From Nocardiopsis potens DSM 45234 (GTDB lineage: Bacteria; Actinomycetota; Actinomycetes; Streptosporangiales; Streptosporangiaceae), in NCBI RefSeq assembly GCF_000341105.1, contig NZ_ANBB01000055.1, forward strand, positions 44,539-108,538: DNA of 64,000 nt. Direction: 5' to 3'. Position 1 is the first letter of the stretch. Every line of letters starts with the position of its first letter. Under the pieces are notes generated by a model that made no database searches, was not told where the DNA came from, and saw only the letters and a program-made list of their open reading frames with translations. Both the position numbers and the translations under genes were made by a program. Below, piece after piece: positions 21,587 to 34,580 of this stretch.

Positions 21587-22939
21587 TCAGGGCTCCAGGC
21601 GTTCCAGGGCGACCAGGTAGCCCTCGCTGTAGGTGGGGAACTGGGCGATGCCGTCGGTGAGTCGGTCGATCGGGATTCGCTCGCGGATCGCCAGAGCTGC
21701 GGAGTGGATCCACTCGCCCGCCATCGGGGCGAGGGCCCAGGCGCCGAGGAGCACCCCGTGTCGGTGGTCGGCCAGCACCCCGAGACGGCCGGTGGGGGAG
21801 GTGGAGTAGGTCCACGGCCGGGCCAGTTCGGCGGTCAGGTCGATCTCTGCGTAGGAGGTCTTCAGCCCCATCTCCCGGGCCTGGGCCGGGGTGAGGCCGA
21901 CCGCGGCCGCCTCGGGGTCGGTGAACAGCACCCGGGGCACCCCGGTGTAGTCGGCGTGGCGCTCGCGGCCGAGCAGGTTGTCGGCGACCACCCGGCCCTG
22001 GTATTTCGCCACGTGGGTGAGGAGCGCGGTGCCGGTGGCGTCGCCGACCGCCCACAGCCCTTCGGCGACGCGGCACCGGTCGTCCACCTCCACCCCGCGC
22101 CGGCCCACCGGCACCCCCAGCTCCTCCAGGCCCAGACCGGAGGTGTTCGGCACCCGACCAGTGGCGGCCAGCACCACCTCCGCGGAGACCTCGCCGCCCC
22201 CGTCCAGCTCCAGCACCGCCGACCCGTCGGCGGTGCGGCGGGCCCGCCGCACCGCGGTGCCGGTGCGCACGTCCGCCCCGTCGGCGCGGAGCGCCTCGGC
22301 CACCGCCGCGCCGAGCCGCGGGTCCTCCCGGCCGAGCAGGTGGCCGCCGCGCTCCAGCAGCACCACCCGGGCGCCCATCCGGACGAGGAACTGGCCCATC
22401 TCCACCGCGACCGCGCCGCCGCCGATCACCGCGACCGAGGACGGGATCCGGTCCAGCGCGGTCGCCTCCCGGTTGGTCCACACCTCGACCGAGTCCAGCC
22501 CCTCCACCGGCGGCACCAGCGGCGACGACCCGGTGGCCAGCACCACCTCCGGCGCGGTCAGCTCCCGCCCCGCCGCCACCCGCCACGGGTCGCGCCCGGT
22601 CAGCCGGGCTTCGCCCTTGACCACCTCGACGCCCTGCTCCTCGTACCCTGCGACCTGCCGGGAGTCGTCGCGGTGGCGCACCATGGCGTCCCGGTAGTCG
22701 CGGATCCCCTCCCAGTCCAGGGCGGGCTCCGCGGTCCCGGCCGCGCCCCGCGCCTCGGCCCGCACCTCGGGAGGGCGCAGCAGCGCCTTGGACGGGATGC
22801 ACGCGTAGTAGCCGCACTCCCCGCCGATCAGCTCCTTCTCCACCACGGCCACCCGCCGCCCGGCGGCGGCCAGCCGGGAGGCGACCGTCTCCCCGCCCGG
22901 CCCCATCCCGATGACGATCGCGTCGAACCGCTCCACCAT
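21587..22939 (-). CDS. FAD-dependent pyridine nucleotide-disulfide oxidoreductase (dihydrolipoamide dehydrogenase / mycothione reductase-like)
   Basis: FAD-binding GMGPGG motif, redox-active CxxxxC (GGECGYYACIPSK), NAD-binding GGGAVAVE, and C-terminal dimerisation domain with HP..E-like residues. Confidence 0.8.
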   Translation of the reverse strand: MVERFDAIVIGMGPGGETVASRLAAAGRRVAVVEKELIGGECGYYACIPSKALLRPPEVRAEARGAAGTAEPALDWEGIRDYRDAMVRHRDDSRQVAGYEEQGVEVVKGEARLTGRDPWRVAAGRELTAPEVVLATGSSPLVPPVEGLDSVEVWTNREATALDRIPSSVAVIGGGAVAVEMGQFLVRMGARVVLLERGGHLLGREDPRLGAAVAEALRADGADVRTGTAVRRARRTADGSAVLELDGGGEVSAEVVLAATGRVPNTSGLGLEELGVPVGRRGVEVDDRCRVAEGLWAVGDATGTALLTHVAKYQGRVVADNLLGRERHADYTGVPRVLFTDPEAAAVGLTPAQAREMGLKTSYAEIDLTAELARPWTYSTSPTGRLGVLADHRHGVLLGAWALAPMAGEWIHSAALAIRERIPIDRLTDGIAQFPTYSEGYLVALERLEP

Positions 22940-23150: not shown

Positions 23151-24407
23151 TCAGCCGCGGCGGACCGGGGACGGCAGGGAGAAGCGGACCGTCTCCCGGG
23201 TGGTCTCGTGCTCGGTCACAGAGAGCGGGCCCAGGCCGCGCAGCGCCGCGATGACCTCGTCCACCAGTGCCGGCGGTGCCGACGCGCCGGCGGTGAGCCC
23301 GATCGCGGCCGCCCCTTCCAGCCAGCCGGGGCGGATGTCGGCGGGGCCGTCGATCAGGTGGGCCGGGGTCCCGTGCCGCTCGGCCAGCTCCACCAGCCGC
23401 ACCGAGTTGGAGGAGTTGCCCGAGCCGACCACCAGCACCAGGTCGGTCTCGGCGGCGATCGCGGACAGCGCCTCCTGGCGGTTGGTGGTGGCGTAGCAGA
23501 TGTCGGCGGAGTCGGGGCCGCGCAGCTCGGGGAAGCGGTCGCGGAGCGCGTCCACCACGCCGGCCGTCTCGTCCACCGCCAGGGTGGTCTGGGTCAGGTA
23601 GGAGACCCGGCCGGGGTCGTCCACCTCCAGGGCCGCGGCCTGCTCGGCGTTCTCCACCAGCACCGTCCGCTCCGGCGCCTCGCCCAGCGTGCCCTCCACC
23701 TCCTCGTGCCCGGCGTGCCCGATGAGCACGACGGTGTCCCCCCGCCCGGCGAACCGCCGCGCCTCGGCGTGCACCTTGGAGACCAGCGGGCAGGTCGCGT
23801 CGATCACCCCGAGCCGGCGGCGCTCGGCCTCGGCGTGGACCGCAGGGGAGACGCCGTGCGCGGAGAAGACCGTCACCGCGCCCTCCGGGACGGCGTCCAG
23901 CTCGTCCACGAAGACCGCGCCGCGCTCCTCCAGCTCGGCGACGACCCGGGAGTTGTGCACGATCTGCTTGCGCACGTAGACCGGCGGCCCGTGCTGTTCC
24001 AGGGCGCGCTCGACCGCCTCCACGGCCCGCTCCACCCCGGCGCAGAACGAGCGCGGTGCGGCGAGCAGCACCCGCCGCGGGACACCGGCCACCGCCCGCC
24101 AGGCGCCGAACGCGGCGCGGGCGGCCTCCCCGGCGGCGGGATCGTCCGGGGCCGCCGCCGCGCCGAGCCCGGCGGTCCCGCCGTCCGGGCCGTCGAACAC
24201 GGCGGTCAGCACCCCCTCCTCGGTCCCCGGCCCGGGCAGCGGGATCGGACCGCTCCGGTGCGCGGCGCCGGCCCGCGCGAGCTCCCCGGCGAGCAGCACG
24301 CCCGCCGGGCAGGGCACCGCCGGGCCGTCGGCGGGCAGCAGGGCGTCGGCGACGAGCACCCGCGGGGGTGGTCCCCCGTCAGCGGCGTCGAAGTCGCTGG
24401 TGGGCAT
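23151..24407 (-). CDS. ispH: 4-hydroxy-3-methylbut-2-enyl diphosphate reductase IspH (LytB) with an ~105-aa low-complexity N-terminal extension
   Basis: Core matches IspH from [19 protein letters not shown] through the conserved Cys ligands ([20 protein letters not shown]) to the SGNSSNS motif. ATG at 24407 follows GAGGAGG. An Ala/Gly/Pro/Asp-rich N-terminal region precedes the core. Confidence 0.85.
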
Positions 24408-24429: not shown

Positions 24430-24930
24430 GGTGTGCGGGACTGCGTTGCGGACCAGGGCCGTCCTGCGGGTTGCGGTGGGCGAGCGGAGCGGGCGATGCC
24501 CTCCCGGCCGCGGGGCCGGCGGGACCGGGTTCCGGTTGTCGGCGGGGCGGCCCGTCCGGCGTGCTCCGTGCGGTGGCTCCGGCCGTCCTGCGGGCTGCTC
24601 TGGGGGTGAGCGGCGCCGGCGGTGACCCTCCCGGCCACGGGGCCGGTGGGATGGCCCGTCCGTGTCCGCCCTGCGCGGGGTTCCGGCCGTCCTGCGGACT
24701 GCGGCGGGCGAGCGGCGCCGGCGTTGACCCTTCCGGCCGCGGAGGCCGGTGGGACGGGCTTCCGGCCGTCGGCGGGGCGGCCCGTCCGCGCCCGCCCCGC
24801 GCGGGGCCCTGGTCCCCGTCCCGCCCCGGAGCCTTGTGCGCGGGGGCGGGGCTGGGCCGCCGCAGAGTGCCGGTGCCGGGCCGGCCGGTTCCGGAACCGG
24901 CCCGGGCGTCCGGGCCGGGCCGGGGACCCC
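24430..24930. repeat. Tandem repeat array (family 2, ~110-120-bp units, at least three copies) between the polyprenyl synthase and ispH
   Basis: Repeated block CCGGCCGTCCTGCGG(A/G)(C/T)TGCG...GAGCGGCGCCGGCG(G/T)TGACCCT(C/T)CCGGCC(G/A)CGG(A/G)GCCGG(T/C)GGGA(C/T)GG(G/C)C... with internal GGACGGGC/GCCCGTCC stems. Units start near 24452, 24570 and 24683. Confidence 0.6.
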
Positions 24931-25994
24931 TAGCCATCGCGGTGTGCGGCGAGGCGGGCCAGGGCCGCCAGTTCCTCGCGGGGCGCCCCGTGCAGGGCGG
25001 CGGCGTCCAGCGATGCCGCGGCGCGCTCCAGCAGCTCCGCCGCGCGCTCATCGCACCAGGCCCTGCCCCCGGCGGCCTCCACCAGCTCCGCCGCGTGCGC
25101 CGCCGACTCGCCGGTCATCGGCTCCTCCCCGGCCATCAGCGCGCCCAGCCGCTCGCCGGCGTCGGTCCCCGAGGTCAGGGCGGCGACCACCGGCAGCGAC
25201 TTCTTCCGGCTGCGCAGGTCGGAGTGGACCGGCTTCCCGGTGGCCGCCGGGTCGCCCCAGATGCCGAGCAGGTCGTCGGTGATCTGGAAGGCCAGCCCCA
25301 GATCCGCGCCGAAGTCGCGGAGCGCGTCCACCCGGTCCGGCTCGGCGCCGCCGAGCAGCGCGCCCAGCGCGGTGCAGCAGCCCAGCAGGGCCCCGGTCTT
25401 CCCGCAGGCCATGGCGGTGCACTCGGCCAGGTCGACGTCGCTGCGGCGCTCGAAGGACAGGTCGGCGGCCTGCCCGCCGACCAGCGCCTGCACCGCCGCG
25501 CCCAGCATCCGCCCGGCCTCCGCGGCGCGCGGGCGGCCGTCGCCGGCCAGCACCTCGAAGGCGAGGGTGAGCAGGGCGTCCCCGGCGAGCACCGCCGGAC
25601 TGGGGCCGAACACGCTCCACGCGGTGGGCCGGTGCCGCCTGGTGGTGTCGCCGTCCATCACGTCGTCGTGGAGCAGGGAGAAGTTGTGCACCAGCTCCAC
25701 CGCGACGGCGGCGGGCAGCGCCGCGCGGGCGGTGCCGCCGACCGCCTCCGCGGCCAGCAGCACCAGGGCGGGGCGGAGTGCCTTCCCGCCGTCCTCGGAG
25801 GCGGGGCGCCCCTCGGCGTCGCACCAGCCGAAGTGGTACCCGGCGATGCGGCGCATCGGCTCGGGCAGGCCGTCCGCGGCCTCGCGCAGCGCGGGGGCGA
25901 CCAGGTCGCGGGCGCCGGTCAGGATCTCGGTGGTGGTGCGGGCGGCGCCGGCCGGGCCGGCGGCCGGCTCGGTGGCGGAGTCGATGGCGGTCAC
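24930..25994 (-). CDS. Polyprenyl diphosphate synthase (FPP/GGPP synthase family)
   Basis: First aspartate-rich motif LLHDDVMDGD and second motif FQITDDLLGIWGD. trans-IPPS fold. Confidence 0.85.
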   Translation of the reverse strand: MTAIDSATEPAAGPAGAARTTTEILTGARDLVAPALREAADGLPEPMRRIAGYHFGWCDAEGRPASEDGGKALRPALVLLAAEAVGGTARAALPAAVAVELVHNFSLLHDDVMDGDTTRRHRPTAWSVFGPSPAVLAGDALLTLAFEVLAGDGRPRAAEAGRMLGAAVQALVGGQAADLSFERRSDVDLAECTAMACGKTGALLGCCTALGALLGGAEPDRVDALRDFGADLGLAFQITDDLLGIWGDPAATGKPVHSDLRSRKKSLPVVAALTSGTDAGERLGALMAGEEPMTGESAAHAAELVEAAGGRAWCDERAAELLERAAASLDAAALHGAPREELAALARLAAHRDG

Positions 25995-26058: not shown

Positions 26059-27492
26059 TCAGCGGCCGAGCTCGACCCCTTCCAGGACGCCGAGGGCGTC
26101 GGGGACCAGCACGGCGGCCGAGTGGTAGGCGGTGACGAGGAACCGCCGGACGGCCTGGCCGCCGATGTCCATCCGCCGCACGGACACGCCCGGCTCGTAC
26201 TCGTCGGGCAGCCCGGTGCGGTGCAGCCCGACCACCCCGGAGTGCTCTTCGCCGGTCCGCATCACCAGCACCGACGTGGTCCGGGTCCGGCTGACCGGGA
26301 TCTTGTCGCAGGGCAGCAGGGGAACCCCGCGCCAGGCGGTGACGGTGCGCCCGGCGACCAGGGCGGTCTCCGGCAGCACCCCGCGCCGGGTGCACTCCCT
26401 GCCGAACGCGGCGATCGCCGCCGGGTGCGCGAGGAAGAAGTCCGACCGGCGCCGCCGGCAGAGCAGGTCGTCCAGGTCGTCCGGGGTGGGCGGGCCGCTG
26501 CGGGCCGGGATGCGCTGCTTGGCGTCGGCGCTGTGCAGCAGCCCGAAACCGGGGTCGTTGACCAGGTCGTGCTCCTGGCGCTCGCGCAGCGCCTCGACGG
26601 TCAGCCGGATCTGCTGCTCCTGCTGGTCCATCGGCTCGCTGTAGAGGTCGGCGACCCGGGTGTGCACGCGCAGCACGGTCTGCGCGATGCCGAGCGCGTA
26701 CTCCCGCGGCGCCGGGTCGTAGTCGACGAAGGTCCCCGGGACGACGGGCTCGCCGGTGTGCCCGGAGGCCATGGCGATCGAGGCCTCGCCGTGCTTGTTG
26801 CCGTCCGGGGGCGGGGCCCCGGTGGCGGCGCGCACCCGCCGGTCCAGCAGCGGAGAGCGGTCCCGCAGCCGCTGGAAGGCGTCGCGGGTCAGCTCCAGCA
26901 CGGTGCACGGGGTGGCGGCGCGCAGCGTCTCCGGCCAGGCGCCTCCGGTCCCGGAGCCGTCGGCGCCGAGCACGGTGGAGCCGGCCACCTCCCCCGCGGT
27001 CATGGTGCCCAGCAGCACCGGGTCGCCGTGCTCGCCGGAGCGGGTCCGCCGGACCCGGCCGTGCGCGATCAGCAGCACCCGGTCGGCGGGGCGGCCGGCC
27101 TCGGCGATCACGTCGCCGGGGTGGTACCGCGCGGCGGTGAAGGCGTCGGCGACCGCGCACAGCGCCGCCATGCCGCCGTCCGCCCCCTCGTCCAGCCCGC
27201 GCAGCACGGTCAGCTCGCGCAGGCCGGCCGGGAGCGGCCGGGGGTCGGTGCGCTCGCCGACCACGGGGACGCGGCCGTCGCCCACCTGGTGGGTGAGCCG
27301 CCGGTTCACCCGGTAGGCGCCGCCGGGCACCTCCACCCAGGGCAGCATCCGCAGCAGCCAGCGCGGCGAGGTCTCCCGGGTCTGCGGGGGCGTCTTTGTG
27401 GTGGTGGACAGCTGCCGTGCGGCCCGGGTGTCGAGGCTCTGCCGCGGGGCCGCTCCGCCGTCGGCGGCGTCCGTCTCCGGGGTGAGGGTCAT
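26059..27492 (-). CDS. Family 2B encapsulin nanocompartment shell protein (shell component 1; internal cNMP-binding-like domain)
   Basis: 477 aa. Disordered N-terminus, a Crp-like cNMP-binding insertion ([23 protein letters not shown]...), and an HK97-like C-terminal body. About 60% identical to the 29745..31173 paralog over conserved blocks (GHTGEPxxPGTFVDY, [37 protein letters not shown]). Start ATG at 27492 overlaps the terpene cyclase stop. Confidence 0.7.
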
Positions 27493-29738
27493 GATGCGCA
27501 CCGTCCGTTCGGTCGGGGGTCGAGGTCTCGCCGGCCGGGCGGCCGGGCGGCCGAGGTGCCCAGGCCGCGCGGTCCGCCCAGCAGGCGGTTGAGGGCGGGG
27601 TGGCGCGGCCCGGCTGCGCCGGCCCGGTAGCGGCCGGTGGTCAGCGTCCACTCCCGGTGCCCGGCGAGCCACAGCCGCAGCGCCTCGATGTAGCGGTCGA
27701 CCAGGGACCGGGCGGACCCGTCCAGGCCGAGCTCCGCGCAGAGCGCCGGGACGTCGTGCCGGGAGGCCCGGTCGAACTCGCGGAGCCGGGCGTCGGCCGC
27801 GTCCGCCAGGACGTCGGCGGCCTGCTGCGCGGTGATCCCGAAGAACCGCTGCGCCACCAGCACCCCGTTGTTGACCTCGGCCTCCTCCTCCATCTCCTTG
27901 CGGAACGAGGCGATGTCGTTGCGGAGCGGCCCGATGTCGGACCACGACTCGGTGAGCGAGCGGACCTGGTCGGAGGCGAGGAACTCCTCGGGGAGCGGTT
28001 CGCCCTCCGGGCCGGAGAGCGCCAGCCGGGCCAGCGCCAGGGAGAGCGCGGTGCCGCCGGTGCGGCGGCGCATCTCGATGTAGTCGATCGGGTCCGGGAC
28101 GCGGTGCTGGACGTCGTTGCCGAGCTCCCACAGCCAGGACTCGGTGAACTCCCGGACGAGGCCGGGGAACTCCCGCCGGGCCGCCTCCGGCAGCACCGGC
28201 GCGGTCCGCCGCCACAGGTCGGCGAGGGCTAGCTGGGCCGGGTCGGCCGGTACCGGGGCGGTGGCCGGGTCCGGCGGCATGAACGCCCGGAGCGCCTCCA
28301 GGTAGGCGCGGGCCCCCGGGACGTTCCGGGGCACCTTGAACTCCTGGGCGAACAGGTCGTCCAGGTAGGAGCTCCACAGGTGCCAGCCGGCGACCAGCTC
28401 CAGGGTGTCGCGGTCGGCCCAGGGGTGGGTGAGCGCCGCGAACCGCGGGTGGTCGGCGGCGTCGAAGGCCGCCCCGTCCCAGACCGGGCCGTCCAGCAGG
28501 CCGGTCCGGCGTGCCCAGTCCCGGGAGCGCGCCCGGACCGCCTCCAGGTGCGGGCTGACCCGGTGCGGGTAGGGCATGGTGAACGCCGGGACCCGGACCG
28601 GTTCGGCCGGGGTGCGCGGCACCGGGGCGTGCGCGGCGGCGAGTGCGCGCGCCCCCAGGGAGAGCGTCGCCGCGGCGCGCGCCGCGGCCGTGCCCAGGCC
28701 CTCGGCGCCCGGCGGGCCCCCGGGGGCGCCGGCCGCCGCCGCACCCGGGTAGCGGCCGGACCGCAGGTGCCACTCGTCGGTGCCGGAGAACCACTCCTGC
28801 AGGCCCTTCACGTAGCGCAGCACCCGGCCGCACTCCTCGGCGTCCAGGCCGTGCTCGGCGAAGAGCTCCGGGAGCTCGGTGGCGGCGGTGTTCTCGATCT
28901 GCCGCATCCGGGAGCCGACCACGTCGCGCATGATCTCCGCGGCGCGCTGCGGCCCGCAGCCGAAGAAGGTGTCCATCACCAGGACGCCGTTGTCCAGCTC
29001 GCCCTCCTCCTCCACCTCGCGCTGGTAGGAGTAGACGTCGTTGTGCATGCCGGCGGCGTCGGCGAAGGAGTCGGTGATCACCCGCAGCGGGCGGGTGCGG
29101 GCGACGCGGGCCGGCAGCTCCGCGCCCAGGGCCGCCTCGACCAGCCCGGCGGACCACTCGGCGCCCCCGGCCCGGCGGCGCATCTGCAGGTAGTCGATGG
29201 GGTTGGCGACCTCGCCCGAGGCGATGGAGACCAGCTCGCGCAGGGACTCGTCGGTCAGGTTGCGGGTGTAGCCGAGGAACCGCTCGCGCCAGTCGACCGA
29301 CATCGCCGGGGCGGTGCGCCGCCACAGGTCGGCCAGGGCCCGCTCGACCGGGGCGGAGGTCTCCGGGACCTCCGCCTCCGGGTCGAGCGGCATGAAGGCG
29401 CGCAGGCCGGTCAGGTAGGCCTGGGCGGCTTCGCGGTCCCGGCCGCGCTTGAACATCTCCAGGAAGTGGTCGTCGAAGTAGAACACCCACACGTACCAGT
29501 CCGCGACCAGCCCCATGACCTCCTCGGAGCAGTCCGGGTGGGTGTAGGCGGCCAGCAGCGGGAAGTCGTGCGCCTCGTACTTCGCCCGGGTCCAGACGGG
29601 GGAGCCGTCCGGGCCGGTGTCGTCGAGGATGCCCATCTCCTCCGTCCAGGCTCTGGAGTGGGCCCGCGCGGCCTCCACGTGCGGGTTCAGCCGCGCGGGG
29701 TGGGGCGTGTAGAACGCCGGGATCTCGTAGGGGTGCAT
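27489..29738 (-). CDS. Two-domain terpene cyclase, germacradienol/geosmin synthase-like
   Basis: N-terminus [20 protein letters not shown] as in geosmin synthases. N-terminal domain DDHFLE (FYFDDHFLE) plus NSE triad [10 protein letters not shown]-terminal domain has a second Asp-rich motif (SSYLDDLF) and NSE (NDIASFRKE). 749 aa. Confidence 0.85.
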
Positions 29739-29744
29739 CGCGGC

Positions 29745-31173
29745 TCAGGAGCCCTCTCGGCCGATCTCCACGTGCTCCAGGATCCCCAGCGCGTCCGGCA
29801 CCAGCACCGCGGCCGAGTAGTAGGTGCTGACCAGGTAGGAGATGATCGCCTTCTCGCTGATGCCCATGAAGCGCACGGACACCCCGGGCTCGTACTCGTC
29901 CGGCAGGCCGGTCTGGTTCAGGCCGACCACGCCCTGGTTCTCCTCGCCGGCGCGCATCAGCATGATGGAGGAGGTGCGGGTGGAGGAGACCGGGATCTTG
30001 TTGCACGGGAAGATCGGCACCCCGCGCCAGGCCGGGACGTGGTTCCCGGCGTACTCCACGCTCTGCGGGTAGATGCCGCGCTCGGAGCACTCCCGGCCGA
30101 ACGCGGCGATGGCGCGCGGGTGGGCGAGGAAGAACGTGGGCTCCTTCCACACCAGGCTGAGCAGCTCGTCCATGTCGTCGGGGGTGGGCGGCCCGGTGCG
30201 GGTGGGGATGCGCTGGGACATGTCCGCGTTGTGCAGCAGCCCGATCTCGCGGTTGTTGACCATCTCGTGCTCCTGGCGCTCGCGCAGCGCCTCGATGGTC
30301 AGCCGGAGCTGCTCGCCGACCTGGCTCATCGGCTCGTTGTAGAGGTCGGCGACCCGGGTGTGCACGCGCAGCACGGTCTGCGCGACGCTCAGCTCGTACT
30401 CGCGCGGGGAGAGCTCGTAGTCGACGAATGTGCCGGGCAGGTCGGGCTCGCCGGTGTGCCCGGAGGACATGCCGATCGCGGCCTCGCCGTGCTCGTTGCT
30501 CGGGGTGTCCCGGCCGGCGAGGAACGCCGACACGTGCTCGCGCAGCGCCGGGGAGTTCTCCGCGACCTGCTGGAAGTCCGACCGGTGCAGCGAGAGCACG
30601 GTGGTCGCGGTGACCGCCTTGACGGTGATCTCCCACCGGTCGTCCTCGTCGACGAGGGAGAGGTCGCCGAAGTGGTCGCCGCCGACCAGGGTCTCCAGCA
30701 CGACGGGGTCGCCGAACTCGCCGGTGCCGATCTCGTTGGCCTTGCCGTGCGCGATCAGGTGGACGTGCTCGGCCGCGTCGCCCGCCTGCACGATGGGCTC
30801 GCCCGCCGCGTACTCCCGCTGCTCGAAGCGGTCGGCCAGCGCGGCGAGCGGGGCGTCGTCCTCGAAGCCGCGGAGCAGCGGCAGTTCGCGCAGCTCCTGC
30901 GGGACGACCGAGATGTCGGCGCCGGTGTTGGTGAAGGAGACCCGGCCGTCGCCCACCACGCAGCTGAGCCGGCGGTTCACCCGGTAGGCGCCGCCGGCGG
31001 TGCGCACCCAGGGCAGCAGGCGCAGCAGCCACCGCGAGGAGATCTCCTGCATCTGCGGCGGGGTCTTGGTGGTCGTCGCCAGGTTGCGTGCGGCCGCCGT
31101 CCCCAGGCTGAGTCGGGACTGCTCGGCACCGCCGCTCTGCGCGCCGCTCTCGGATTCGAGCTGCTCGGTCACA
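29745..31173 (-). CDS. Family 2B encapsulin nanocompartment shell protein (shell component 2)
   Basis: Paralog of 26059..27492 with the same cNMP-binding-like insertion and C-terminal blocks. Start assigned to the GTG at 31173 by alignment with the paralog N-terminus (..TTTKTPPQ..SxRWLLR(M/L)LPWV). Stop is 6 nt upstream of the terpene cyclase start. Confidence 0.65.
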
Positions 31174-31910
31174 GTGCACCGCCGTTTCTGCGTGCTCAGG
31201 AAAAAGAGGGTCGTTGATTCGGGGGTTCGCCCGAGCGGGGGCGGCCGGGGCGCGGGGCGCCGTCGGGGGTCGGTGGAGAATCCGCCTTTCCGCTTCCCGG
31301 GCGGGAAGCGCGCTCGGTCGTCCCCCGTTGTATCACCGCGTTTCCGGCGGCATGCGGCCGATCGGAAACAGGGGTTGTGGAAAAACCCGGAAGTGCGGCG
31401 GGGCGGCGCCATTCGGACATGGCGGATCGCTCGGCTGCGGCGCGAGAGGGGTGCTGTGAACAGTGGTGATCTTGCAGGGGTGGGGTTGCGGACACGATGT
31501 AAGAAGTCCGAATCCGATCCGGTCGGGGAAATCCGGGTTCCGTGGTGCGCACGGTTCTCCCCGGGGAGAATCCCCGCCCTTGGGGAGACCGATTCCGATT
31601 TTCTGAAATAAATAGTTCGAGTGTTCAGCGGCGTGTGAGAGGAAAGTCTGTTTCGAGTCTTATATCGGTAGATGTAAGGCGGAAACGGTTCGGTCGGTCG
31701 CGTCGAGCGGCCCCCGCCGGACGGGCCGGCCGTCCCGGGGGCGGGTGCGCCGGAGCGCGCTCCGGGCCGAACGCGTGTGATCCGCGCCGCCCCGGAAACC
31801 GCCGAGAACGCGGGAGCGTCCAGGAGAATGCGAGGGCGGTGGCGGGCGGCGACGCCTCCCCTCCGCGGGCTGGATCCGACGCGCAGGGCCGGAGCGGGGA
31901 AGGGGCGCCG

Positions 31911-33152
31911 ATGGAGCCGAAGCGGCGCGCGCGGCGCAGGACCGCGCGGGAGTGGGCACTGGACGTGACGGCGTTCCTGTTCGCGGTGGTCTGGGCCGGG
32001 CTGGTGGTGCTGGCCTACGAGCTCGACGACGCCCCGATGGCCGTGCCCGGCTGGGCGGTGACCGCCGACTTCTACGGCTGGGCCGCCGGCTGCCTGCTGG
32101 TGTGGGCGCGCCGCGGCCGGCCGGTGCCGGTGGCCCTGGCCACGGTGCTGCTCTCCGCGGTCTCCGGCGCGGCCGCCGGGGCGATGCTGGTGGCGCTGTA
32201 CGGCGCCGCCGCGCGCCGGCCGCCGCGCACCGCGCTCCTGCTCGGCCTGCTCGCGGTCGCCTGCGGCGCGGCCAACACGCTGATCTGGCGCGACCTGACC
32301 CTCCCGCTCTGGGGCAACCTGCTGTTCGGCGCGGTGTTCACCGCGGTCGTCGCCTTCTCGGTGATCGGCTGGGGGATGCTGGTCGGCGCGCGGCGGCGGC
32401 TGATCGGCTCGCTCCGCGAGCGGGCGGTGCGCGCGGAGCGGGAGGCGGAGCTCCGGGCCGAGCAGGTCCGGCTGGCCGAGCGGGAGGCCCGGCTCCTCGC
32501 CGAGCAGGCCCGGCGGGCCGAGCGGGAGCGCATCACCCGGGAGATGCACGACGCCCTGGGGCACCGGCTGTCCCTGCTCAGCGTGCACGCCGGCGCGCTG
32601 GCCTACCGCACCGACGCCTCCCGGGAGGAGGTGGCGCGGGCCGCCGGGGTGATCCGGGAGAGCGCCCACCAGGCCCTGCAGGACCTGCGCGAGGTGATCG
32701 GAATGCTCCGCTCCGGGGAGGAGGACGAGGGCGCCGGCGCCGACCGCCCGCAGCCGACCCTGGCCGGGGTCGAGGAGCTGGTGGCGGAGTCCGCGGACGC
32801 GGGCATGCGGGTCCGGCTGGACGACCGGGTCGGCGGCGCGGACGCGGAGCGGGCCCCGGGCACGCTGGCCCGCAGCGCCTACCGGATCGTCCAGGAGGCG
32901 CTGACCAACGCCCGCAAGCACGCCCCGGGCGCCGAGGTCCGGGTGGTGCTGGAGGGCGGCCGGGAGGAGGGGCTGACCGTGGAGGTCTCCTCCGGCCCCG
33001 CCGCCGAGGCCGCCCCGCGGCTCCCGGCCGGCTCCGGCCAGGGCCTGATCGGCCTGGCCGAGCGCGCCGCCCTGGTCGGCGGCGAACTGGAGCACGGCCC
33101 CACCCCGGACGGCGGCTTCCGGGTGCGGGCCCGGCTGCCCTGGCCGTCCTGA
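31911..33152 (+). CDS. Membrane-embedded sensor histidine kinase (NarL-partner / DesK-LiaS-like HisKA_3 family)
   Basis: Five to six N-terminal TM helices, coiled-coil, H-box [12 protein letters not shown], and HATPase ([21 protein letters not shown]). ATG at 31911. Confidence 0.8.
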
Positions 33153-33485: not shown

Positions 33486-33880
33486 GTCGGGAAGGGACTC
33501 TGATACTGGACGGTGAAGGCTTCTCGAAGCTGCTGAGTGGCGACGAAAAGGTGCGTGCCGTGGTCGAAGCGGCCCGTCGGCGGGGTGTGGAAACGGTCGT
33601 CTGCTCGCTGACCATCATCGAAGCCGTACACGCGAACACCGATAAGGCGCGGTTGCGGTGGGTGCTGTCCGGGCTTCGCGTCCTCCCGGTGGGCGAAGAC
33701 GAGGCCAAAGCGGCCTCGGCGCTGCTGATGTCGGCCGGGCTGCACGGTCATAAGTACGCGATCGACGCCGCCGTCGCCGAGGCCGCTCTGCGGCAGAGGC
33801 GCCCTGTCGTCATGCTGACGTCGGACGTCGACGACATGAAGAAGCTCTGCGGTGATCGGATCGCCCTCTCTGCGGTGTAG
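33467..33880 (+). CDS. PIN-domain toxin (VapC-like)
   Basis: 137 aa from GTG at 33467. Acidic residues in PIN positions (LILDGEGF, E in VVEAARRR, MLTSDVDDM). Overlaps the antitoxin stop by 19 nt. Confidence 0.55.
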   Translation: MARRKLSREGTLILDGEGFSKLLSGDEKVRAVVEAARRRGVETVVCSLTIIEAVHANTDKARLRWVLSGLRVLPVGEDEAKAASALLMSAGLHGHKYAIDAAVAEAALRQRRPVVMLTSDVDDMKKLCGDRIALSAV

Positions 33881-33893
33881 TTACGCTGGCCCC

Positions 33894-34580
33894 ATGACCG
33901 ACACCCAGTCCCGGCCCCCCGTCCGCGTGCTGCTCGTCGACGACGACGCCCTGGTCCGGTCCGGGCTGGTGCTGATGCTCGGCGGGGCGCCGGACGTGGA
34001 GGTGGTCGGCGAGGCCGGCGACGGCTCCGAGGTCATGGACCTGGTGGGGCGGACCCGCCCGGACGTGGTGCTGATGGACATCCGGATGCCCGGCACCGAC
34101 GGGCTGGAGGCGACCGAGGCGCTGCGCGCCCTGCCGGACGGGCCCGAGGTCATCATCCTGACCACGTTCGACACCGACGAGCACGTGCTGCGCGCGCTGC
34201 GCGCCGGCGCCGCCGGGTTCCTGCTGAAGGACACCCGCCCGGAGGACATCGTCGCCGCACTGCGCCGGCTGCGCGCCGGGGAGCCGGTGCTCTCCCCGGC
34301 GGTCACCCGCCGGCTAATCGCGCACGTCACCGGCCCGGTCGACGAGACCGCCGCCCGCCGCCGGCGCGCCCGGGAGCGCCTCGCCGCGCTCAGCGACCGG
34401 GAGCGCGAGGTCGCCGCGGCGATCGGCCGCGGCGCCTCCAACGCGGAGATCGCCGCCGGCCTCTACATGAGCCTGCCGACGGTGAAGACGCACGTCTCCC
34501 GGATCCTCACCAAGCTGGACCTGAACAACCGGGTGCAGATCGCGCTGCTCGCCAGCGACGCCGCCGAGGACGGGGCCTGA
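33894..34580 (+). CDS. Two-component response regulator, NarL/FixJ family (REC + LuxR HTH)
   Basis: Receiver motifs RVLLVDDD, VVLMDIRMPG and LTTFD. C-terminal LuxR-type HTH LSDREREVAAAIGRGASNAEIAAGLYMSLPTVKTHVSRILTKL. Confidence 0.9.
   Translation: MTDTQSRPPVRVLLVDDDALVRSGLVLMLGGAPDVEVVGEAGDGSEVMDLVGRTRPDVVLMDIRMPGTDGLEATEALRALPDGPEVIILTTFDTDEHVLRALRAGAAGFLLKDTRPEDIVAALRRLRAGEPVLSPAVTRRLIAHVTGPVDETAARRRRARERLAALSDREREVAAAIGRGASNAEIAAGLYMSLPTVKTHVSRILTKLDLNNRVQIALLASDAAEDGA

Follow-up and report, generated by a model that had tools for sequence, protein, structure and literature searches.

A Family 2B encapsulin locus of the two-component type in Nocardiopsis potens with a GeoA-like terpene cyclase as predicted cargo

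In this study we describe a gene group within a 64,000-nucleotide stretch of the genome of Nocardiopsis potens DSM 45234 (RefSeq assembly GCF_000341105.1, contig NZ_ANBB01000055.1, positions 44,539 to 108,538 of the forward strand; hereafter the window), in which two genes encoding encapsulin shell proteins of Family 2B, encA and encB, enclose a gene for a two-domain terpene cyclase resembling the geosmin synthase GeoA. Profile and structure-database searches confirmed, as far as sequence comparison reaches, that encA and encB are a two-shell Family 2B pair consisting of an Enc1-type and an Enc2-type protein. It is highly probable that both proteins contribute to a mixed shell which packages the cyclase, that genes for prenyl supply are located downstream, and that the enzyme forms germacradienol and from it geosmin or a related product. 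The GC content of the window is about 75%, and codon-position GC statistics served to tell genuine genes from the numerous long but spurious open reading frames (ORFs). On the minus strand, encA (29745..31172; 475 aa, GTG start), the gene of the cyclase as the predicted cargo (27489..29738; 749 aa) and encB (26059..27492; 477 aa) are closely packed, with a 6-nt gap (29739-29744) between encA and the cyclase gene and a 4-nt ATGA overlap (27489-27492) between the latter and encB. An original prediction, made from the DNA letters and an ORF list, had already described this arrangement, and all three genes are present in the ORF map, as are the sequence blocks that it had quoted (GHTGEPxxPGTFVDY, DDHFLE, NDVYSYQRE and a second DD/NSE pair). 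The length given there for the cyclase, 749 aa, was correct; encA has 475 and not 476 or 477 residues, and the end at 31173 was placed one base too far. The limits of the unit, 26059-31173, were drawn too narrowly: genes for a polyprenyl diphosphate synthase and IspH come next, and the published operon type includes a prenyltransferase. The unit is a member of this type, "Enc1-TC-Enc2-PT" (TC, terpene cyclase; PT, prenyltransferase), which has already been catalogued.

Several lines of evidence identify the two shell proteins. With the Family 2B shell model NF041163 (cut-off 400 bits), encA scores 768 and encB 673 bits, and for both proteins this model outperforms its Family 2A counterpart, NF041162. 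Both contain an SrpI-like domain (Pfam PF19307; E=6e-139 for encA, E=8e-126 for encB) and a cNMP_binding domain (PF00027; aa 119-206 in encA, aa 122-212 in encB); insertion of the latter before the main shell domain sets Family 2B apart from 2A. Full-length matches to the cryo-EM shells 9BJE, 9BIX and 9BHU were obtained for both proteins, the E-values ranging from 1e-151 to 3e-204. The best solved homolog of encA is Enc1 of Streptomyces lydicus (9BJE, E=3e-204), that of encB is Enc2 of the same species (9BIX, E=1e-161). The proposed Family 2B identity is thus upheld by profiles far above their cut-off, and the proposed paralogy by 56% identity between encA and encB over the full length, which amounts to 68% in the HK97 part and to 39% in the cNMP-like domain. 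The assignment to the Enc1 and Enc2 types follows diagnostic motif 1, which reads LVWK in encA and RRRR in encB; in related loci, scanned with one genome per species, 62 of 64 Enc1 proteins have [TLV]VWK and all 55 Enc2 proteins RR[RK][KRG]. Self-assembly into a T=1 icosahedron with cargo is predicted from solved homologs that are 56-70% identical.

The original prediction had taken the cNMP-binding insertion as a hint of ligand-gated behavior. In encA this cNMP-binding-fold domain (30555..30818, minus strand; aa 119-206) carries Trp180 at the position of the phosphate-binding Arg, and this residue aligns with Arg82 of CAP as well as with Trp176 of the shell protein SgEnc; the alignment places a Trp at the same position in encB. 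The CAP sequence used for Arg82 is what we take to be the correct one, and the alignment agrees with the PDB matches. Of about 125 aligned shells, only one has no Trp at the CAP Arg82 position, and this Trp has been reported for practically all 2B domains. As the Arg82 equivalent is replaced in both proteins and homologous shells, namely EshA/SgEnc of Streptomyces griseus (PMC11550324) and the shell of Myxococcus xanthus (bioRxiv 10.64898/2026.07.21.739788), do not bind cAMP, gating by cAMP or cGMP is unlikely, and the cNMP-fold domains of encA and encB probably do not bind cAMP.

The middle gene had been read as encoding a two-domain, GeoA-like cyclase, and this is well founded: Pfam recognizes two Terpene_syn_C_2 stretches, the N-terminal domain matches that of the Streptomyces coelicolor geosmin synthase (5DW7) with E=8e-126, and the motifs DDHFLE and NDVYSYQRE are located at aa 89-94 and aa 233-241, respectively. 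The cyclase had been thought to be devoid of an obvious loading domain, which left its encapsulation open. In fact, it possesses both of the peptides known to load GeoA of M. xanthus (MxGeoA): GLGTAAAR (28677..28700, minus strand; aa 347-354) in the Gly/Ala/Pro-rich linker between the domains, and GLGTSAAR (27543..27566, minus strand; aa 725-732) in the C-terminal tail. When aligned with GeoA homologs, the linker region (aa 344-354) corresponds to their GP[N/T]GLGTSAAR linker motif and the C-terminal region (aa 722-732) to their C-terminal loading peptide. In geosmin-synthase-like cyclases a peptide between the two domains is repeated at the C-terminus, and a role in loading was predicted for it in 2021 (PMC8346489); mutation or deletion of the peptides at both sites reduced loading of MxGeoA (bioRxiv 10.64898/2026.07.21.739788). 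Cargo loading is thus no longer an open question, since the peptides of the cyclase match those tested in M. xanthus GeoA. A possible binding site is found in the shell, where the hydrophobic cargo pocket of SgEnc, located at the luminal three-fold axis, is formed by L264, L285, F430 and Y441 (PMC11550324); all four residues are kept in encA as L, L, F and Y.

By homology, encA and encB would co-assemble into a T=1 shell of about 27-29 nm with 60 subunits and a mixed composition, which would display the cNMP-fold domains on the outside and have large two-fold pores. The cyclase would be packaged inside, with GLGTAAAR and GLGTSAAR bound in the hydrophobic three-fold pocket on the luminal side. 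The gene content further suggests that the polyprenyl synthase and IspH may raise the local levels of isopentenyl and dimethylallyl diphosphate (IPP/DMAPP) and of farnesyl diphosphate (FPP), that FPP would enter through the two-fold pores to be converted to germacradienol by the N-terminal cyclase domain, and that the C-terminal domain would turn germacradienol into geosmin or a related product. In homologous systems, assembly, mixed tiling, peptide binding in the three-fold pocket, two-fold pores, the lack of cAMP binding and protection from proteolysis have been shown. A number of points speak against this picture. For the locus itself, shell assembly and mixing, cargo loading and the product are each deduced by homology. 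In encB three of the four pocket positions are changed (L, I, R and F), and the linker peptide of the cyclase has Glu instead of the consensus Thr/Asn and is missing the preceding Pro. The cyclase is only 45-52% identical to all homologs outside Nocardiopsis, and its score of 922.8 bits with NF041168, the model for Family 2 encapsulin cargo terpene cyclases, lies below the cut-off of 1200. Within its C-terminal domain, DDLFAQEF departs from the near-invariant DDY[FY]P of canonical GeoA proteins, and NDIASFRKE is found in place of the canonical ND[IVL]FSYQKEIEFE. Downstream, the polyprenyl synthase is without a disordered N-terminal domain of 50-100 residues, and a repeat-bearing spacer of 520 bp separates it from IspH.

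With regard to the shell genes, two other explanations have to be weighed. The notion that they encode EshA-like or Crp/Fnr-family cyclic-nucleotide-responsive regulators of a terpene cluster, and not shells, draws on the occurrence of a cNMP_binding domain and on the name 'Crp/Fnr family transcriptional regulator', which the closest homologs still bear in PDB and GenBank. This name is a legacy annotation, since the PDB entries concerned are cryo-EM encapsulin shells (PMC12407261), and EshA itself has been re-assigned as a shell protein (PMC11550324). Neither protein matches a helix-turn-helix family, CRP resembles the two proteins in its cNMP domain alone (positions 16-128 of the 214 in the CRP model), the phosphate-binding Arg is replaced by Trp, and the C-terminal 250 residues represent an SrpI-like HK97-fold shell domain; we have rejected a regulatory identity, the probability of which is negligible. 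It is also very unlikely that the genes give rise to two separate one-component compartments, e.g., Enc1 shells housing the cyclase and Enc2 shells the prenyltransferase. Separate assemblies could not be excluded in the 2021 survey of these operons (PMC8346489), two candidate cargo genes are present, and the altered encB pocket (Phe to Arg, Tyr to Phe, Leu to Ile) might point to another cargo specificity. However, the two-component systems of S. lydicus and M. xanthus, which are both of those tested, form mixed shells with stochastic tiling, MxEnc2 alone does not assemble (bioRxiv 10.64898/2026.07.21.739788), and encB shares the Enc2 hallmarks, i.e., the RRRR motif and SVRRMD, with Enc2 of M. 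xanthus strain AM003 (L058). This strain, from which all our M. xanthus comparison sequences are taken, is not necessarily the one studied in the preprint.

A third alternative retains the architecture and concerns the product: the re-modelled C-terminal domain might yield another terpenoid in addition to germacradienol, or the reaction might stop at germacradienol/germacrene D, so that the cargo would not be a geosmin synthase. We regard this as a serious possibility, if somewhat short of probable. In an alignment of 80 homologs, non-canonical motifs in this domain, represented in the window by DDLFAQEF (28338..28361, minus strand) and by the second C-terminal-domain motif (27894-27920, minus strand), are restricted to 13 cyclases, all from Streptosporangiales. 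Four of these, including that of the window, belong to Nocardiopsis and have DDLF[AV]QEF together with NDI[AL]S[FY]R[KR]EMEEE, and the nine from Actinomadura and Spirillospora have an FDD[LF]F[AVT]ERF-type motif (DRF in one case). These Asp-rich motifs are DDxxxE-like and resemble that of the N-terminal domain, whereas in almost all of the 67 homologs outside the clade the motif is DDY[FY]P or differs from it by one residue, and the second motif is of the canonical type. The NSE region of the C-terminal domain likewise deviates. Of the two canonical motifs, the near-invariant Tyr, Pro and FSYQ positions are lost in the cyclase of the window. The domain is 38-44% identical to those of canonical GeoA proteins, as opposed to an average of about 54% for canonical pairs with comparable N-terminal divergence, and the clade reaches 887-990 bits with NF041168 versus 1176-1225 bits for canonical members (1224.6 for M. 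xanthus GeoA and 1176-1189 for the others). In our sample, two Actinomadura cyclases with canonical motifs (L039 and L061) have no shell genes nearby, which suggests a separate paralog. A literature search on Nocardiopsis volatiles returned a single relevant isolate, which made 2-methylisoborneol (2-MIB) and not geosmin. On the other hand, the residues essential in the C-terminal domain of GeoA are all kept, namely the DD pair and, in the NSE triad, the metal ligands N, S and E, and the domain does not appear to decay: within Nocardiopsis it is 76% identical compared to 89% for the N-terminal domain, and relaxed selection is not supported, as a similar gap occurs in canonical GeoA proteins. 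The literature search found no characterized enzyme of the non-canonical clade, hence none with a different product, nor did it find geosmin from Nocardiopsis. The C-terminal domain is probably functional, since it has retained the DD pair along with the N, S and E ligands and shows no unusually fast evolution within Nocardiopsis; geosmin is not assured as the product because the motifs depart from the canonical ones, and its odds are roughly even.

If encA and encB form a mixed shell around the cyclase, as we favor, the question arises what the second shell protein contributes. In encB, SVRRMD (26167-26184, minus strand) has an Arg at the position of SgEnc Phe430, where its counterpart in encA, SVRFMG (29862-29879, minus strand), has the Phe; SVRRMD is common to encB and Enc2 of M. 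xanthus AM003. Among aligned related loci this position is Phe or Tyr in 64 of 64 Enc1 proteins and Phe in only 26 of 55 Enc2 proteins, and Arg is a frequent substitute in the latter, about half of which are without the pocket Phe. Owing to the exchange of its pocket Phe for Arg, Enc2 is likely to dilute the cargo-binding sites of the shell. It probably also enables a closed-pore state, a suggestion that builds on M. xanthus, where a contact between MxEnc1 Arg24 and Glu253 closes the two-fold pore and the closed pore occurs only in mixed shells (bioRxiv 10.64898/2026.07.21.739788). The Arg that ends the N-arm motif LGTAAAR of encA (31086..31106, minus strand; aa 23-29) aligns with MxEnc1 Arg24, and the pair consisting of the N-arm Arg and the Glu of a PREY motif is present in both encA and encB; in the AM003 ortholog the two are residues 24 and 253, in agreement with the numbering of the preprint. 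LGTAAAR is kept across the Family 2B shells of 80 related loci, and the N-arm of encA has the same heptad, LGTxAAR, as the cargo loading peptides. The strict pattern LGT.AAR occurs at three sites in the six-frame translation of the window, which are the encA N-arm and the two cyclase peptides, and in the 80 related loci (3.1 million six-frame residues) 119 of 122 sites are shell N-arms or sites preceded by G, the latter presumably cyclase peptides. No mention of this sharing was found in the main text of the experimental papers searched. It might be speculated that the N-arm is a built-in mimic of the cargo peptide which acts as a ligand of the same surface, that loading at the three-fold axis is thereby coupled to closure of the two-fold pore with Enc2, by its Arg at the pocket Phe position, setting the balance, and that the shell gates substrate according to its loading state and not in response to a cyclic nucleotide. 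We consider such a mechanism rather unlikely.

The polyprenyl diphosphate synthase gene following encB (24930..25994, minus strand; 354 aa, PF00348) corresponds to the 'PT' of the TC/PT operon type. Its product scores 473.1 bits with NF041169, the model for Family 2 encapsulin cargo polyprenyl transferases, which is marginal at a cut-off of 450 bits. For encapsulin-associated prenyltransferases, a disordered N-terminal domain of 50-100 residues has been proposed as the loading domain (PMC8346489). Here the model begins after about 21 residues (MTAIDSATEPAAGPAGAARTT), an upstream extension of the ORF is not possible, and the N-termini of most orthologs in TC/PT operons are even shorter; the protein was not accepted as a clear second cargo, as the long disordered N-terminus is missing, and this role is left uncertain. 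A Phe is located five residues ahead of the first DDxxD motif (NFSLLHDD). Under the established rules of chain-length control, a Phe at that position favors short products, and the enzyme may thus make FPP.

The subsequent gene (23151..24407, minus strand; 418 aa, PF02401 and NF002189), the start of which was set by codon-position GC and orthologs, encodes a long form of the 4-hydroxy-3-methylbut-2-enyl diphosphate (HMBPP) reductase IspH. Its N-terminal extra domain of about 112 aa (24072-24407, minus strand) has no Pfam match and constitutes a conserved module with the pattern VLVADxLL..PCPAAxLLxGELRRRG...GLGVAA...WLAVAG. The long form is distributed across many actinobacterial genera (109 of 120 top homologs with a locatable core motif; median extension 117 aa). 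It directly follows the polyprenyl synthase in all six sampled genomes, and in four of the six the pair lies behind one or two Family 2B shell genes. The LPGPG and GLG strings of the extension, which resemble published loading motifs, led us to consider it as a new disordered loading domain. This idea was discarded as the leading interpretation: the extension is a conserved, domain-like module in the 109 homologs, occurs without neighboring shell genes in two of the six genomes, is absent from other operons of the same order, which carry a short IspH, and is without a Pfam match. The prenyltransferase or IspH might be physically associated with the shell. Co-transcription of IspH is uncertain because of the intervening 520-bp spacer. 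Within this spacer, at 24457-24824, a GC-rich unit of about 100-125 bp is repeated roughly three times in tandem (Tandem Repeats Finder: period 102, 82% matches, 24549-24754). The repeat is not conserved in the Nocardiopsis relative with 95% identity, in which alignment is limited to the 63 bp adjoining IspH, and in other Nocardiopsis relatives the spacer ranges from about 75 to 855 bp.

The arrangement has many counterparts. The closest cyclases all belong to the genus, those of Nocardiopsis sp. CNT-189 (95% identical) and of N. chromatogenes and N. endophytica (74%), and the Nocardiopsis relatives have the same gene order of shell, cyclase, shell and polyprenyl synthase, with or without IspH. 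This order, often with IspH next, is also found in Actinomadura, Spirillospora, Kribbella, Saccharopolyspora, Pseudonocardiaceae and one Streptomyces; altogether, dozens of actinobacterial loci have the cyclase gene between those of Enc1 and Enc2 and the polyprenyl synthase gene directly after the latter. The survey of 2021 arrived at 904 cyclase operons of Family 2B, a prenyltransferase being present as well in 165, and noted that Family 2B operons often have two shell genes about 60% identical (PMC8346489). The 2025 study on S. lydicus catalogued 503 two-component operons and reported that TC/PT operons can have the cyclase flanked by Enc1 and Enc2 and the prenyltransferase immediately behind Enc2 (PMC12407261). 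The novelty implied in the original prediction therefore finds no support, as the operon type has been described in both papers and a counterpart in M. xanthus has been characterized experimentally. With the catalogued type the locus shares the exact synteny and the split of motif 1 into [TL]VWK and RRRK-type forms; it adds the long-form IspH, and its cyclase falls into the clade with the non-canonical C-terminal domain. The TC/PT type as such is known only from the catalogue and has not been characterized. S. lydicus provides the nearest structural homologs; the operon studied there is of the xylulose-kinase type, and no cargo is known for it.

In M. xanthus, GeoA is packaged into a mixed Enc1/Enc2 T=1 shell via its linker and C-terminal peptides, and encapsulation guards it from cleavage and raises the geosmin titer; most actinobacterial geoA genes, in turn, have no neighboring encapsulin gene (bioRxiv 10.64898/2026.07.21.739788). 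Our locus resembles this system in its two Family 2B shell paralogs and two-domain GeoA-like cyclase, in the N-arm Arg of LGTAAAR with the PREY Glu, in the Trp at the cAMP phosphate-binding position and in the SVRRMD of Enc2. It differs in gene order, Enc1-TC-Enc2 followed by polyprenyl synthase and IspH as opposed to TC-Enc1-Enc2 in myxobacteria, and the M. xanthus operon is devoid of both prenyltransferase and IspH; the two cyclases are about 46% identical, and only the one described here has non-canonical motifs in the C-terminal domain. The EshA/SgEnc encapsulin of S. griseus with its 2-methylisoborneol synthase (PMC11550324; 9BHU) is similar in the external cNMP-fold domain with the Trp176 equivalent, in the three-fold hydrophobic pocket, which is kept in encA, and in having a terpene cyclase cargo with a GLGT-containing motif. 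Unlike our system, SgEnc is a single shell protein, and its cargo is a one-domain monoterpene cyclase with a disordered N-terminal loading domain of about 120 residues instead of linker and C-terminal peptides. The germacradienol/geosmin synthase of S. coelicolor (SCO6073; 5DW7/5DZ2) has the same two-domain alpha-alpha organization with DDHFLE and ND(x)xSYQRE and differs in the motifs of the C-terminal domain. We take these to be DDYYP and NDVFSYQKE in the S. coelicolor enzyme, which agrees with the consensus of our homolog alignment.

Upstream of encA and divergent from it, a HisKA_3 histidine kinase (31542-33152, plus strand) and a LuxR-type response regulator (33840-34580, plus strand) are encoded. 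The spacer between encA and the kinase gene comprises about 740 bp and includes stretches of lower GC content. The response regulator lies beside encA in three of three Nocardiopsis relatives and is 60% identical to a LuxR-type response regulator near three Actinomadura operons. Immediately downstream of IspH and on its strand, a gene for a pyridine nucleotide-disulfide oxidoreductase (21587-22939, minus strand; 450 aa) keeps its position in two Nocardiopsis relatives (L001 and L003), and a functional link to the Fe-S enzyme IspH is conceivable. A scan for sigma-70 promoters returned no promoter-like sites, and one for intrinsic terminators returned two terminator-like sites, both within coding sequence, with 0.7 expected; both scans are uninformative in DNA of 75% GC. 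An Rfam search for riboswitches and known RNAs found nothing in the encA-kinase spacer or in the spacer between polyprenyl synthase and IspH. Elsewhere in the window, RF02735 (Sernc350, an antisense sRNA of Saccharopolyspora) matched at 30619-31126 (plus strand) with 212 bits at a gathering score of 50, antisense to the region encoding the N-terminus and the cNMP domain of encA, and a weak second match was obtained at 27296-27326 (plus strand), antisense to encB. The main match probably reflects encapsulin coding conservation on the opposite strand; an antisense transcript is possible.

The main contribution of the locus is to confirm that the range of encapsulated terpenoid biosynthesis includes Nocardiopsis, and it provides an actinobacterial example of the order Enc1-TC-Enc2-PT-IspH that can be compared with the M. 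xanthus system. What it adds is modest, consisting of the non-canonical C-terminal domain, the substitution in the Enc2 pocket and the motif shared by N-arm and cargo. If the observation is correct, the shell-associated GeoA-like clade, whose second domain is re-modelled, might form a product different from geosmin within the shell. Similarly, if they hold, the common LGTxAAR heptad and the Phe-to-Arg exchange in Enc2 would offer mutable handles on cargo loading and pore regulation in two-component encapsulins.

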